DNA of 64,000 bases from a virus (Duplodnaviria; Heunggongvirae; Uroviricota; Caudoviricetes), in the IMG/VR virus record IMGVR_UViG_2654587772_000002. One strand, given 5' to 3'. The position numbers and the translations under genes are program-made. Shown piece after piece: positions 16,933-32,999 of this stretch (the stretch's first letter is position 1; each line of letters begins with the position of its first letter). Below the pieces are notes generated by a model. The model made no database searches and was not told the DNA's origin. It saw only the letters and a program-made list of their open reading frames with translations.

Positions 16933-17246
16933 GTATTTTTAAGTCACGAATGCTATCTTTGCGCATCATATTGACCTTTTAATCGTTCAGGCTTATATTT
17001 CCGCTGTCGTAGCAAATTCTGCGACCGGGTTTAGCAGCCTGAATGATTGTGCGGACAGCCGCAGATATCCGATATTGCGGTATTTTTGTGTCCGTAAAAC
17101 CGCGTTACGCCCAAATTATGGTGGGGCGTGATGGGGAGGCTTCGGCCTGCTGGTTTCACAATCGCCAGTCTGCTAACCCCGTCACGTCCTGCCACCTGTT
17201 TAGCAGCGGGTAGCAGGTTGTTAAACCTGATTGTGAGGCCGTAACT

Positions 17247-22098: not shown

Positions 22099-22280
22099 TA
22101 CACCCGCTGCGGTGTGCTTGGGGCTATCAGCTTCAGGTATTACCCGAAAAGCAGATAGAAGAAAGCCCCAGTAAACATTATGCGTCCCGCACAACGCTTA
22201 ACATTAACCGGGGCCATACCTATGCTTAGCGTACTTAGATTAATCCTCTCCTCTGTCAAGGAGCAAGGAATTTTTTACTG

Positions 22281-22878
22281 CTATGCCGCCTTTCCAGTTA
22301 TGGATTCTGCGACAAGAACAACCCCATGCTTACTTCGATCCGGATGTTCACTCCATATCTCGGATTCAGGAATACTTTCCCCGTCATAGCAAACACGTTC
22401 GCCATCAAATGGGTAATACTGAGCAGTATCGGTGTCCAGGATAAAAACTTTTAGTTCGGAAGAACGACGAGCGATGTGCTGCCAAAGAGCTTTTCCACCT
22501 TCGTATTGCTCATTATCACTGAGCAAAACAACACCAGCTTTTGAGGCTACGGTTTCGTAAACAAAAGTGGCTAAACCGACATCCCGGACGATTCCATCAA
22601 CCACGATACCTTCAATCTGGGCAACATCGCTATCCTCCCAGAACTTCCTTACCAGTACGCCTTCAAGCTGCGGGCGACGTTGAAGTTCAAGAGTAGCGAC
22701 AACCTTATGCCGCATATCACCATCGATAACAGAAGGCGCAGCCTCTATTACAGCTGCAAATGGGGTTTTGGAATCCCATATAACCTGGTAAAGCACACCC
22801 TGGATGGTAACGCCGTCCAGGATCGAAAATCGACGAGCGACAGTACCCGGGGAGTACGACATTGGAATCACAGCCATT
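22281..22878 (-). CDS. hypothetical protein
   Basis: about 199 aa from the internal ATG (MAVIPMSY...); no confident domain. Confidence 0.4.
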
Positions 22879-28593: not shown

Positions 28594-29595
28594 TTAAGGC
28601 TTCGGCTTTTTATCGAGGCTCTTTCTAAGGATATGCCCAATCATCCTGTCGAGTTCTTCCTGTAGCTCTTTTGAAAGTCGATTAAACTCATAAGAAAATG
28701 CCCGGCCTTTCACGCGCTTCCTTGCAAAGCGATCCTTGTCCTCAAATTTCCATAATTCAGTAACTACGGACTTATCTTTAGAACCTTTATCCGTGAGTAG
28801 TGAGGCTTCCTTTGTTATCAAGCGCAGGATTTTATTTTTAACTTCATCTTCGGCCATTTCTTCAATGGATAAGATGTCGTTTATTTCCGGGGATATGTTT
28901 TGAATAAGCTGATCAAACTCTAAATTCTTGTTCCCCATTTCGTCGCCAACAGCACAAAGCGTTTTGTAGTCCGAAAAGGTTAATTCCGACTGCACAGGGA
29001 AAAGGGCGACTAATTCTTCCGGAGCACTCGCTGCCTGGAGAGCACGCGTGACCTTCGCCTGAGACAGCCCTTCTTTGGCTGCAATATCCTTCTGACTCAT
29101 CCCATCATTTTTCATTCGCATCAAACGCAGACCTATTTCTCGAATGCTGTGCTGCAATGCTGTCTGAACGTCTTTCGCTAAATTTTGCGCTTCCTGAACG
29201 CTGATCTCCTGGTCCGTGACTAAAACCCGCAACCCTACGTTCTCTAAGATGGCAGAAGCTCGACGCCGGGAACCATCCAAAATTTCAATTTTCCCTGTAG
29301 CCCGTCTAACACCTATTGCAGGGTAAAATTGCTGATGCTTAATAGTGCTTCGGATACTTTTTAATGATTTTGGCGTAAGAGATGCCTGGTCACGCCCGTT
29401 GTTATGCTGATCAACAAAGGTATCGCTTTCTACCTGGTTCGGAGGTATTACCTCTTCAATAAATGTGGCCTGGCGACCAGTTGATAACTTGAATACCTGC
29501 TCGACTCGATCGCCAGAGGCTGAAGAACTATCAAATCCGCTTAATATTGAAGGATTAAGGGTTCGCCCAATTGTTGGTCTGTTTTTCTTTGACAT
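28594..29595 (-). CDS. parB: partition protein ParB
   Basis: 333 aa; ParB-type HTH; directly adjacent to parS and parA. Confidence 0.85.
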   Translation of the reverse strand: MSKKNRPTIGRTLNPSILSGFDSSSASGDRVEQVFKLSTGRQATFIEEVIPPNQVESDTFVDQHNNGRDQASLTPKSLKSIRSTIKHQQFYPAIGVRRATGKIEILDGSRRRASAILENVGLRVLVTDQEISVQEAQNLAKDVQTALQHSIREIGLRLMRMKNDGMSQKDIAAKEGLSQAKVTRALQAASAPEELVALFPVQSELTFSDYKTLCAVGDEMGNKNLEFDQLIQNISPEINDILSIEEMAEDEVKNKILRLITKEASLLTDKGSKDKSVVTELWKFEDKDRFARKRVKGRAFSYEFNRLSKELQEELDRMIGHILRKSLDKKPKP

Positions 29596-29611: not shown

Positions 29612-30808
29612 TCAGTTAGATCTGATAAATTCAATACGGTCAAAAACTGCTTTAGCAAAATCTTCCGCGGCAATTCGCGCGTTCTTCAATGCATCAGCAC
29701 TACCAACATACGTTGCCGGGTTAGCTGAAATAACAGTGTCAAAAGACTCGCCGCAACGTTCAAAACCGTCAAGGCGAGGGAGGACGACATCGAGCATATC
29801 TCCACCGAACACTTCTTTAGCCAGGCTATGGCAATACTTATGATCTGCCTTGTTACTCAACTTGGACATAAAACCAATGTTAGTCGCAAGCTGGCACTCG
29901 CAGCCTTCATCCGAAATGAGTTTTACCAACTCAGGAAGGCGGGCAACGTATTTAAGCGATGAGTGGAAATCGACAGTTGCTGGCGGCAGAGGTGTAAACA
30001 GTATATTGGCCGAGGCCAAAGCATTTTTCAGGAAGGCGTCAAGGTGAGGACCACTATCAACGAGGATAAAGTCATAATCGCTCTTCAGCTTATCAATCAC
30101 ATTTTCTTTCAGGACAGCATGGATGTTCTGACCCGGTAGATGCTCATTGCACAGCTCTCTCCAATCGGATGCAATAAAGGCATCGTCAATCGACGCAGGC
30201 ATAACGTCAACCCCAGGTACAACAGAAGGAACAATAAACTCCTCTAACAGCTCTTCACGGCTTACATTCTGCAACATAGCCTGTGCAGATGTTGCGTTTA
30301 CGATACCAATAGAGTGTTTATGGCTTAAAAACATCGTTGCTGAAGATTGCGGATCAAGGTCAATAACCAGAATTCTTAAATCTTCCATCAGAAGATGAGG
30401 GTGGGCACGCATTGCATGCGCCAGAGAAACCGTCGATACAGTTTTTGACACACCGCCTTTAAGATTGGAGATGAAAATCACATACGCTTCGCTGTAGCGA
30501 TCCCGGTATTTTGGCACTCCGCGATGTTCATATATGTCAATGATGTTCTGAATTGACATCGCATATTTCATTGAAGAGCCAGCAGGGCGTTTATCGAAAA
30601 CATAACCCTTTTCTTCCATTTCACTTACGGCATAGTCAACGTTCGCTCGAGTCAGTAGAGGCAATTTTGCCAGTGCCGCTTTCGCATAGACCTGGTAAAA
30701 CTCGTTCGCGTGTAGCTCATCCTTTTGCAACTGTACTTGTTCAGTCAGAACATTGAGCATTCTGTTTGCTCTTTGAGCAACCTTGTGAAGCTGGCTGGAA
30801 TCACTCAT
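29612..30808 (-). CDS. parA: partition ATPase ParA (type Ia)
   Basis: 398 aa; deviant Walker A KGGVSKT; N-terminal extension. Confidence 0.85.
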   Translation of the reverse strand: MSDSSQLHKVAQRANRMLNVLTEQVQLQKDELHANEFYQVYAKAALAKLPLLTRANVDYAVSEMEEKGYVFDKRPAGSSMKYAMSIQNIIDIYEHRGVPKYRDRYSEAYVIFISNLKGGVSKTVSTVSLAHAMRAHPHLLMEDLRILVIDLDPQSSATMFLSHKHSIGIVNATSAQAMLQNVSREELLEEFIVPSVVPGVDVMPASIDDAFIASDWRELCNEHLPGQNIHAVLKENVIDKLKSDYDFILVDSGPHLDAFLKNALASANILFTPLPPATVDFHSSLKYVARLPELVKLISDEGCECQLATNIGFMSKLSNKADHKYCHSLAKEVFGGDMLDVVLPRLDGFERCGESFDTVISANPATYVGSADALKNARIAAEDFAKAVFDRIEFIRSN

Positions 30809-30976
30809 CGAAAGTCATCCTTTATGCTGTATTTTTGAATTTAATTAAAAATGCTGCATAAAATAATAATGTATGCGTAGATGCTTGTACATAGCATTCT
30901 CTGCATGTTTGGTTCATTTTGCACGATTGAGAGTTACAAGGAGGGAACAAAAAAGCCCCGTTCAGGGGCATCAGTG

Positions 30977-31786
30977 TTATTTGCTAAGAGCAGCGAATAA
31001 TCGTTCGAAATCGATAGTATCTATAGCACGCGTAAGCGCCGGAAGTTCAGCCTCAAAGTACCCGTGTCGATCGTAAAAGAAGGGACCGAAGAGCGAGGCA
31101 TGTTGGATTCTACTTCGCCCCAGCCCGGACACACAGTTAAGCCCATTACCGGCTAAAAGGCTAAAAAACTTCTCTGGATTATCGTGGTAAAGCTGGGAAT
31201 CAATGGTGGCGGTTAACTCTTCCATAGGGAAGCACACCCGCCCTGTATCCCAGGGATATTTAGTCCGAAGCATAAACATTGCTTTCAGCAATTCACATTG
31301 AGCGCGGATCGCGTCCGGTTCATAGCCAGATATGGAGACATAAGCCACGTCCCTCATTCCTGCGTCATCTTTGAAAGTCACGATAGAAGTAACATCCAGC
31401 TCTTTTTCGAAAGAGCAAGCAGCATCTACTGGACGCTGAAGTAAATCATTCGACTTAATGCGCTCGAGAATCCCTCCCCACATATCATTTAGATATTCGA
31501 TATGAGCCAAAACCTTATCAAGACACTCTCGTGTAAACCATTCAGTATGCCCGCCACCGACGCTTTTCTCCCACGGCGCATTCCAGGGGAAAAAGGTTGC
31601 GTGTAAAGCCCGCTCAAGATTAACCATTGCCAAACGCGTACCACGATAGACCCGTGAAAGCGCAAAATCGGGACTCACTTGTAGCCCTTTAAACCGTGCC
31701 AATGGACCACATGAAATGCCGATTTTAAAAGTATCTCCGTTCTCTGGCACCAGAACGTAGAGGTAGTGTTGTTTCTCTTCTTGCAT
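30977..31786 (-). CDS. GIY-YIG / T5orf172-like domain protein
   Basis: N-terminal YLYVLV...FKIGIS...GHTEWF motif set; about 170-aa C-terminal region of unknown function. Confidence 0.5.
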   Translation of the reverse strand: MQEEKQHYLYVLVPENGDTFKIGISCGPLARFKGLQVSPDFALSRVYRGTRLAMVNLERALHATFFPWNAPWEKSVGGGHTEWFTRECLDKVLAHIEYLNDMWGGILERIKSNDLLQRPVDAACSFEKELDVTSIVTFKDDAGMRDVAYVSISGYEPDAIRAQCELLKAMFMLRTKYPWDTGRVCFPMEELTATIDSQLYHDNPEKFFSLLAGNGLNCVSGLGRSRIQHASLFGPFFYDRHGYFEAELPALTRAIDTIDFERLFAALSK

Positions 31787-31820
31787 ATCAATACCACTGC
31801 TTGATGAGAACCGCGCAAAT

Positions 31821-32078
31821 GTTGACTATGCGCGAAGGTTAATGTGAATAGTTGACTATGCGCGATGTGACTACAGTCAAAAGTTGACTGTAGTCGATTT
31901 AACTCCACCAAAGATCGACTATGTAAGATATTGTCGGGAGAAACGTTGACTATACGCGATGAAATGCCCCTAAAAGCCATCTCAATAGCGACTTGCAGAA
32001 TATTGACGCCAGCAAAAATCCACCAGCGTCAACGAATGTCGCCTATAGTCAACTTCTCGCTATCGCATATAGTCAATA
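31821..32078. repeat. iteron array downstream of repA (incA-like)
   Basis: repeated GTTGACTATGCGCGA-like units at about 31821, 31851, 31883, 31945 and inverted copies 32029-32078. Confidence 0.65.
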
Positions 32079-32999
32079 TTATGGATTGCGCTTATGGATC
32101 TGGAAGCCGATTTTCCTGCCGTTTTTTATCTCTGAAAATTTAAGATATTCAATAGCTTCCAAATCTTTCATGGCTTTTCTGATAACGCTATTTTGCACGC
32201 TAACGGATGATTTGAGATTAAGCCTCGCTCTAAGGCGCTCAATGCTGACAGGTGCCGGGTTGGCGGGTAGAGCCTCAAAGAATGTATACAGTACCTTGGC
32301 CGTCTCTTTGCGCCCTAGTTTATCCAGCATCTTCAGCTTCAGGATTCGCTTATAGTCAACATAGTAAAGTTCAGATAGCTGTTTCTGCGGCTGGATCTCG
32401 ATAACATCAAGCTCGGTATTCAGGCTGCTATATGCCAACAAGTTGACGTTAATGTTATTGAGATGACCTTTTGCCGCCGGGAAGCGGAATTTGACAACTG
32501 TCTGCTGAATGCGTGTCAGAGAGTCATCAATACTTTTACGGAACGCCTTTGAAAGGCGCTTACGTGGATAGCCGCATCGATCGGCAAACTCGGAGAATGG
32601 CAGGGTGATTATGCCGTCATCATCAGGTGCGTAGTCAAACAACGCGGAAGTTATGCCCACCCACACCTTAAAATCAGTATCCATATCCAGGCGTGGACCA
32701 TGAATTTCAATTCCCTCATAGCCTTCCTGCTCAACAATTTTGAGGCTTGATAGTTCTTCAGTTGCGTTCGTTGTGTTTGTTGTAACTGACGATCCGCGAC
32801 GTAGCGCCACATTGGTAGATTTTAAGGTTGGCACAAACACACCTAAGCGCAACAAAGCGATGGGTTGTATAGTGCTGTTGTTATTGGGCTTCAGGCTGTG
32901 GATTTCTCCTGTATTTCCTGCAACTTCTTCAACGCTAAGGAAGCCTTTACTTTCTTCCGGCATCACGGTTTCTCCATGTGTGGCGCGGCCTGACGTCAA
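32079..32999 (-). CDS. repA: plasmid replication initiator RepA
   Basis: 306 aa; blocks QPIALLRLGVFVP, GPRLDMDTDFKVW and C-terminal HKRNP resemble P1-type RepA; flanked by iterons. Confidence 0.8.
   Translation of the reverse strand: MTSGRATHGETVMPEESKGFLSVEEVAGNTGEIHSLKPNNNSTIQPIALLRLGVFVPTLKSTNVALRRGSSVTTNTTNATEELSSLKIVEQEGYEGIEIHGPRLDMDTDFKVWVGITSALFDYAPDDDGIITLPFSEFADRCGYPRKRLSKAFRKSIDDSLTRIQQTVVKFRFPAAKGHLNNINVNLLAYSSLNTELDVIEIQPQKQLSELYYVDYKRILKLKMLDKLGRKETAKVLYTFFEALPANPAPVSIERLRARLNLKSSVSVQNSVIRKAMKDLEAIEYLKFSEIKNGRKIGFQIHKRNP

Follow-up and report, generated by a model that had tools for sequence, protein, structure and literature searches.

The characterized T5orf172 proteins that our literature search recovered fall into three classes, namely homing endonucleases, the origin-directed nuclease Odn, which acts against a satellite, and CapR, a repressor that arose by domestication (PMC8263062, PMC10448857). 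Homing endonucleases of this class sit at the boundaries of recombination modules, and Odn (gp88 of the vibriophage ICP1, with Odn-like proteins in the coliphages Inny, Muut and Mt1B1_P17) cuts the origin iterons of its rival (PMC8263062, PMC10448857). Odn loses its activity, in vitro as well as in vivo, through the E180A substitution (PMC8263062). Of the T5orf172 homing endonucleases, 87% bind DNA with Zn-finger modules (CapR, DUF723 or DUF4397; PMC10448857).

Here we analyze a T5orf172 gene that is part of the replicon of a P1-like phage-plasmid. Existing annotations list its product as a GIY-YIG nuclease family protein and as phrog_2876, and it goes by the names 'unknown protein' (gp57 in JL22) or 'GIY-YIG nuclease' in publications; our literature search recovered no functional study of it. 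Given the existing annotation and the passing mention in the literature, its presence is not new. What we consider new are: 1) its two-domain architecture with a predicted Rep-WH1-like tail; 2) its status as a third module, conserved yet dispensable, that separates rep from par in four cassette types, one of them with P1-type iterons; 3) its bearing the evolutionary signature of a conflict gene.

The window, i.e. the whole stretch of 64,000 nucleotides that was analyzed, is by sequence comparison a P1-like phage-plasmid: its ParA and ParB proteins are 100% identical to those of P1, its major head protein is 98% identical, and the region is 98.7-99.8% identical to SJ46, JL22, phi456, RCS47 and several records named 'phage P1'. 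This identity is also backed by a C4 antisense RNA (RF01695) with a1/b1 target elements (RF03163) at 16993-17199 on the plus strand, a combination that we would expect of the P1 immI immunity region. The RepA protein, at 42% identity to that of P1, departs from this pattern. Alignment with reference P1 (NC_005856) shows ~98% homology up to position 30910, just past the -35 element of Ppar, and again from 33161, just past the origin iterons; the intervening 2,250 bp of the window replace 1,491 bp of P1, with the nuclease ORF at the par-proximal edge. This swapped cassette is the known p0111-type replicon, carried among others by pO111_2 (NC_013370), the plasmid after which the type was presumably named. 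In the orientation of the ORF the order is origin iterons, repA, incA-like iterons, ORF, terminator, Ppar, parA and parB, and the features are as follows:

28594-29595, minus strand: parB (ORF list, Pfam)
29612-30808, minus strand: parA (ORF list, Pfam)
30863..30891, minus strand: Ppar promoter, common to P1 and outside the cassette (P1 annotation via alignment, promoter scan)
30911..33160, no strand assigned: swapped replicon cassette, comprising origin iterons, repA, incA-like iterons, ORF and terminator (blastn breakpoints against P1)
30945..30969, minus strand: strong intrinsic terminator (30969-30955, GCCCCTGAACGGGGC and then a T run), directly 3' of the ORF stop (terminator scan and sequence)
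30977..31786, minus strand: nuclease ORF, 269 aa, ATG start (ORF list, Pfam PF10544, phrog_2876, AF2 model)
30980..31408, minus strand: C-domain, predicted winged helix, aa ~127-269, with no sequence family and preceded by a disordered linker (aa ~106-126)
31472..31786, minus strand: N-domain, GIY-YIG/T5orf172 catalytic domain by sequence, aa 1-105 (conserved Y8, Y10, K21, G23, R31, E58, H62 and E82)
31821..32077, no strand assigned: incA-like control iterons, between the repA stop and the ORF start (repeat finder, pattern search, sequence)
32079..32999, minus strand: repA, p0111-type Rep_3 initiator (Pfam Rep3_N and Rep3_C, RCS47 annotation)
33045..33144, plus strand: origin iterons, five copies with 21-bp spacing (repeat finder, pattern search)

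An earlier note, made from the letters of this DNA, had described a 269-aa ORF with the motifs YLYVLV, KIGIS and GHTEWF at 30977-31786, lying between the downstream iterons and the parA promoter. Both the ORF, which is on the minus strand, and its placement are confirmed, the latter by the sequence and by repeat and promoter scans. The iteron core TCGCGYATAGTCAAC has 16 matches in the window against 2.5 expected, a number reached in 0 of 100 shuffles. The incA-like array holds four copies in one orientation (31821, 31851, 31883 and 31945) and two in the opposite one (32039 and 32063), and 34 nt separate its last iteron from the ATG of the nuclease ORF. One more copy, with a single mismatch (TCGCTTATAGTCAAC), falls within the coding region of repA (32346-32360, plus strand), and a copy with three mismatches falls within parA (30626-30640). 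Read mechanically from the TTG at 32999 repA would encode 306 aa; the annotation of RCS47 gives 294 aa, i.e. a start at the ATG at 32963 (MPEESKGF...), and this shorter form is likely the true one. The GC content of the nuclease ORF (0.474) is close to that of the window (0.476), so that base composition in this comparison gives no foreign mark on it.

In none of the four variants described below did the promoter scan detect a convincing sigma-70 site in the interval that separates repA from the ORF, and the same interval contains no terminator in the four variants, bar an iteron-derived hairpin in one of them (L049); a terminator does follow the ORF in the window and in L051. Given that neither a promoter nor a terminator was detected between the two genes, the simplest reading would be that the ORF is co-transcribed with the autoregulated repA, through the RepA-bound iterons.

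The N-terminal domain had been called nuclease-like, and this is borne out at several levels. The window protein matches Pfam T5orf172 (PF10544) with 26.9 bits, above the cutoff of 20, its three diverged variants do so with 25.1-27.8 bits, and a match to phrog_2876 spans the full length of the window protein (E 1e-194). The model of the domain has the GIY-YIG alpha/beta fold and was matched structurally to SLX1; the likeness to SLX1 and the GIY-YIG structure-specific nucleases is at the fold level only (identity 11-19%), and SLX1, with its RING/PHD C-domain, its SLX4 partner and its role in eukaryotic DNA repair, is otherwise unlike the ORF product. Across 36 diverse relatives Y10, K21, G23, R31, E58, E82 and F84 are invariant, and S44, H62, G79 and W83 almost so. 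In a profile-profile comparison with hhalign the domain matched ICP1 Odn with a probability of 91.5% (E 8.8e-7), and R31 pairs with R148 and E58 with E180 of Odn (positions counted by hand in the hhalign output). Given the invariant residues and the alignment of this arginine-glutamate pair to that of Odn, we take the catalytic core to be intact and assign the N-terminal region as a T5orf172/GIY-YIG nuclease domain. In the full-length AF2 model (pLDDT 71.6) a linker of ~20 residues (aa ~106-126) between the two domains is predicted to be disordered.

The C-terminal domain, which the same note had termed uncharacterized, indeed has no Pfam match even at E<=10 and no sequence match in the PDB; structure prediction gives it a winged-helix fold when modelled alone (pTM 0.73). 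In three structural searches the top matches to it were WH1 domains of Rep initiators of iteron plasmids, i.e. those of the Rep_3 type, including RepE, pPS10 RepA, MSBI1.176 Rep and P1 RepA, with 98-104 of ~125 residues aligned, and a search with the full-length model returned the same ranking. Against viral structures the top Foldseek match is a COG5527 'initiation of plasmid replication' protein (probability 0.92, E 0.037). The scores are modest and shade into those of generic winged helices, and comparison of the domain with five RepA proteins (its own and those of P1, L003, L049 and L051) by BLASTP and hhalign shows no similarity (probability 0.2%). Hence, we call this domain WH1-like rather than a homolog of Rep: it is probably a DNA-binding winged helix that is nearest in structure to Rep WH1. 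The absence of BLASTP and hhalign similarity to the five RepA proteins also rules out a recent chimera with the neighboring RepA. In Pfam searches at E<=10 we found in the C-domain neither Zn-finger modules (CapR, DUF723, DUF4397) nor I-TevI-type binding modules, which sets the ORF product apart from the T5orf172/GIY-YIG homing endonucleases.

Distant variants were collected by an exhaustive HMMER search along with contig look-ups. The search covered 1.84 billion cluster representatives and yielded 154 matching proteins at E<=1e-3. Almost all of these matches are limited to the N-domain, and the C-domain recurs only in three full-length relatives (P0004, P0009 and P0011) and some fragments. 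All three full-length relatives occupy the same slot, repA - iterons - ORF - parA, of P1-like backbones: 1) P0004 (locus L003) accompanies a RepA 84% identical to that of the window and the same iterons as in the window, and the ORF is 44% identical to that of the window; 2) P0009 (L049/L050) accompanies a RepA 83% identical to that of P1 and P1-type iterons (ATGTGTGCTGGAGGG), with 27% identity between the ORFs of these loci and the window; 3) P0011 (L051) accompanies a RepA of a third type, 41-48% identical to the others, with iterons of a third type, and is 38% identical to P0009. The variants of these three other P1-like lineages have diverged to 25-44% identity with the catalytic residues invariant. 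These loci (Logan ERR2144811, SRR6505940 and SRR12532267; NCBI GCA_007478465.1) represent three diverged P1-like lineages whose gp23 is 80-81% identical to that of P1; their rep/ORF/par combinations were not found in PLSDB or the phage collection, nor were P0009-type variants found in PLSDB. A scan of genome contigs recovered one close locus only, and one of viral contigs close alleles only. P0004 is annotated as 311 aa, the first 41 residues of which read through the iterons (L003 8001-8123; an 'AYSQH' repeat), and the alignment begins at Met42; the true product is probably of 270 aa. Another protein, P0005 (197 aa; E. coli plasmid locus ABN773_26325), has an unrelated N-terminus of 78 residues in place of the T5orf172 domain, fused to C-domain residues ~105-223, and might reflect either a rearrangement or domain shuffling.

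Comparison of two of these lineages with each other reveals the same kind of exchange as that between the window and P1. L003 and L049 have nearly the same backbone (ParA 100%, ParB 98% and gp23 99% identical), whereas their cassettes differ (RepA 41%, ORF 28%), and the breakpoints are the same as those of the window against P1. In PLSDB, 404 records have the p0111 cassette and 401 records carry the ORF, all at >=90% identity. The view of the gene as cargo lodged in one element is not supported: it is near-constant in the p0111 cassette and recurs in four diverged cassette types. There are also elements of this kind that are devoid of it. In reference P1 the nine incA iterons are followed by an unrelated spacer of ~213 bp, in which tblastn found no remnant of the ORF (E>0.6). 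The IncY element pMCR-1-P3 has ~115 bp between incA and parA and a 401-aa ParA like that of L051, a ParA which we take to be of the P7 par type. In pHum4b, which combines a p0111-like replicon with another par type, homology to the window ends at 31798, between the last iteron and the ATG of the ORF. The statement that canonical P1-type replicons have only control repeats at this position accordingly holds for reference P1 and pMCR-1-P3; it fails for L049, which has a P1-type RepA and iterons and still carries a member of the family. The contrasts of L049 with P1 and pMCR-1-P3 (IncY type) and of the window with pHum4b (p0111 type) also involve 83-89% divergence or different par modules, and within p0111 cassettes the ORF is near-fixed. 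The elements that are without the gene suggest that the ORF is a separate unit, which can be present or absent, at the junction of the rep and par modules. Its presence correlates better with the rep type than with the par type, and its variants likewise follow the RepA type: identity is 44% between the ORFs of two p0111-type reps and 28% between those of two loci with a common par.

To assess selection on the gene, 46 close alleles could be evaluated for disruption of the ORF. Eight of these (~17%) are disrupted, by four independent events. Seven have premature stops, which fall at three codons (68, 112 and 228); the group with the stop at codon 112 includes pO111_2, and the allele with that at codon 228 is that of SJ46. 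The remaining one, in an IMG/VR relative (L045 6294-8058), is split by an insertion element with loss of codons ~99-174; the insertion encodes two ORFs, of 141 aa and 389 aa, the longer one with the motif CxxC...CxxC at its C-terminus, and is presumably of the IS200/IS605 type. Two-piece matches in other records suggest further frameshifts, in agreement with which the database has sizeable clusters of fragments, of 168 aa (229 members) and of 181 aa (205 members), next to the 1,241 members of the full-length cluster. repA, parA and parB show a single-base indel each, all in one locus (L009). Among intact alleles pN/pS is 0.33 for the ORF, 0.045 for repA, 0.002 for parA and 0.055 for parB, i.e. 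6- to 160-fold higher in the ORF, which diverges much faster than the neighboring genes. The two domains are similar in pN/pS, with 0.28 in the N-domain and 0.33 in the C-domain (30 alleles, those with premature stops included). The variable residues, many of them singletons, are evenly spread without ever hitting the catalytic positions, and we saw no cluster of amino-acid polymorphisms on the putative recognition surface. Synonymous diversity among the close alleles (L004-L048) is 0.028 for the ORF, 0.049 for repA, 0.039 for parA and 0.061 for parB; the difference is small, and the lower value of the ORF would fit a more recent spread than that of its flanks.

The Pfam match, the full-length phrog_2876 match, the conservation in three lineages and a pN/pS below 1 identify the ORF as a genuine gene at the level of sequence. 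Judging by the disrupted alleles and by a pN/pS of 0.33 against 0.002-0.055 it is coding, weakly constrained and dispensable for the element. An essential part of the replicon would not be expected to be absent from P1, pMCR-1-P3 and pHum4b, to be broken in 8 of 46 alleles and to evolve under so much less constraint than repA. The earlier note had allowed that the gene might turn out to be a conserved housekeeping partner in all relatives: the conservation of its position is real, but given the ~17% of pseudogenes and the relaxed selection it is not a housekeeping gene.

Several lines of evidence converge on the types of conflict nucleases described at the outset, namely a nuclease domain with its core intact and a Rep-like winged helix behind it, the location at the edge of a swapped cassette, the presence-absence pattern, the frequent pseudogenes and the fast divergence. 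On these grounds we tentatively favor, at somewhat short of an even chance, the proposal that the ORF codes for a conflict nuclease which resembles homing endonucleases or Odn and whose gene is linked to the replicon cassette. Like Odn, the product has a T5orf172 domain with the same arginine and glutamate, joined to a second domain that in Odn is a DNA-binding domain of the replication-initiator type and in the ORF product probably resembles one at the level of the predicted fold; both are encoded by phage-type elements for which they are dispensable, the related gp5 of ICP1 being often frameshifted too (PMC10448857), and both are tied to the modular swapping of replicon cassettes (PMC8263062). 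The two differ in domain order, the nuclease being N-terminal in the ORF product and C-terminal in Odn; in the binding domain, Odn having a RepA_N domain whose sequence is clearly homologous to the RepA of its target and the ORF product one that resembles Rep_3 WH1 in predicted fold only, with no sequence signal; and in setting, Odn being deployed by a lytic phage against a satellite, whereas the ORF is inside a plasmid replicon beside its own iterons. The T5orf172/GIY-YIG homing endonucleases (those of ICP1 and T5, and the T4 Seg and I-TevI types) display the same arrangement of head, linker and binding tail within ~250-300 aa. Those that are free-standing are, like the ORF, intergenic beside essential genes, with their own terminator, at the boundary of a recombination module, and they too show frequent pseudogenization, as well as presence-absence polymorphism, for which the comparisons above suggest a counterpart in the ORF (PMC10448857). 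The near-fixation of the ORF within one cassette type is unlike the sporadic occurrence of such genes. Its position at the cassette boundary is consistent with homing and co-conversion of the flanks, without being diagnostic of them.

From this combination we infer nuclease activity, a target and an outcome along the following lines. The gene would encode a dispensable sequence-specific DNA endonuclease that acts as a selfish or competitive passenger of the P1-like replicon cassette, with a T5orf172 (GIY-YIG) head, a flexible linker and a WH1-like DNA-binding tail. Its transcription would be weak and shared with repA, running across the incA iterons and ending at the terminator of the ORF. In a cell with two P1-like elements, the enzyme might cut a site in the rival, i.e. 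in an allele without the gene or with a different cassette. The cut rival could then either be lost, as in Odn-like elimination, or be repaired from the nuclease-carrying copy, in which case a homing-like conversion would drag along the adjacent repA-iteron cassette. A narrower version, in which the Rep-like winged helix recognizes the replication-control DNA of a rival P1-like element, so that cleavage results in elimination of the rival or conversion of its cassette, is one to which we give only a limited chance. The element's own iterons are an unlikely target, because the C-domains of two elements with the same iterons and 84%-identical RepA proteins are only 32% identical.

Most likely, then, the gene serves competition between rival elements, and not replication or general phage defense. 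A role in defense was the suggestion of the earlier note, which thought of a single-gene defense or exclusion function; exclusion or conflict indeed emerges as the most plausible functional class, whereas none of the 5,027 PADLOC models (PADLOC-DB v2) matches the protein at E<=1. In its general form this alternative holds that the protein acts against unrelated phages, by degrading or nicking incoming DNA or as an abortive-infection effector that protects the lysogen. The nuclease architecture would suit such a role, dispensability, relaxed selection and fast divergence are typical of defense genes as well, a distant relative of the N-domain (P0014) adjoins Mrr-like and WYL genes in a chromosomal island, and prophages and phage-plasmids are known to carry defense genes (PMC10879196). 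We nevertheless consider it improbable: in addition to the PADLOC result, there is no NCBIfam match, no sensor or partner gene is present, and among the 1.84 billion representatives the full-length members all belong to a single slot, that of P1-like replicons, rather than being broad and island-hopping in distribution, while the characterized T5orf172 proteins that we found in the literature act in conflicts between mobile elements and not in host defense (PMC8263062, PMC10448857).

It is equally improbable that the protein is a domesticated accessory of the replicon, which would bind the iterons or RepA by its Rep-like winged helix and modulate copy number or handcuffing, shield Ppar from read-through out of repA, or repress in the manner of CapR, whether or not it also nicks DNA. 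Such a function would account for the fixed position next to incA in four cassette types, the tracking of RepA type rather than par type, the probable co-transcription with repA and the Rep-WH1-like fold, and CapR, the PLE repressor related to the T5orf172 homing endonucleases, is a precedent for the domestication of such proteins as sequence-specific DNA binders and regulators in a mobile element (PMC10448857). However, CapR is related to these enzymes via its Zn-finger DNA-binding domain, whereas in the ORF product the binder is a predicted winged helix and the nuclease core is strictly conserved, with catalytic residues that a pure DNA binder would not need. Moreover, P1, pMCR-1-P3 and pHum4b replicate without the gene, its pseudogenes, including those of SJ46 and pO111_2, occur in otherwise intact elements, its pN/pS far exceeds that of all three neighbors, and the C-domain has diverged between elements that have the same iterons and similar RepA proteins. 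That the gene is a functionless remnant of a once-active homing endonuclease or accessory gene, decaying and kept through its linkage to repA, would be in keeping with the recurrent nonsense mutations and IS disruption, the many evenly spread singleton variants and the lack of any consequence of its absence in P1, but is very unlikely given that pN/pS is still well below 1 in both domains, ~83% of the alleles remain intact, no catalytic residue varies across four lineages and 36 distant relatives with identities as low as 25%, and the reading frame has been held through divergence to 25-44% identity.

Whether the gene is a conflict nuclease matters beyond this locus, as P1-like phage-plasmids occur commonly in E. 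coli and Salmonella, and ESBL, mcr and further resistance genes are often part of their cargo. The p0111 replicon is found in about half of them (63 of 119, PMC10879196; 24 of 55, PMC9603915), and virtually every p0111 replicon brings the nuclease ORF along. If it codes for an active nuclease against rival replicons, this would amount to a new mechanism of plasmid competition or incompatibility, effected by a nuclease instead of Rep/Par titration, and would provide a mechanistic explanation for modular replicon replacement in phage-plasmids. It might then drive the IncY/p0111 dimorphism and the swapping of cassettes on near-identical, often resistance-carrying P1 backbones, and would represent a second, independently evolved case of the Odn principle outside the ICP1-PLE system, with an Odn-type weapon inside a plasmid replicon. 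If it is only a decaying homing endonuclease, it would be a useful marker and nothing more.

The RNA genes of the window include a tRNA cluster at 40725-42478 on the plus strand, with tRNA-Asn(GTT), tRNA-Thr(TGT) and a tRNA with a CAT anticodon called by both Rfam and ARAGORN, and a doubtful tRNA-Ser(TGA) at 41353-41439 called by ARAGORN alone. They also include a sok antitoxin RNA at 22112-22285 on the plus strand (Rfam RF01794; score 62.3 bits, gathering score 59), and hence imply a toxin-antitoxin locus of the hok/sok type; as to our knowledge reference P1 has phd/doc and not hok/sok, this locus may be accessory cargo.
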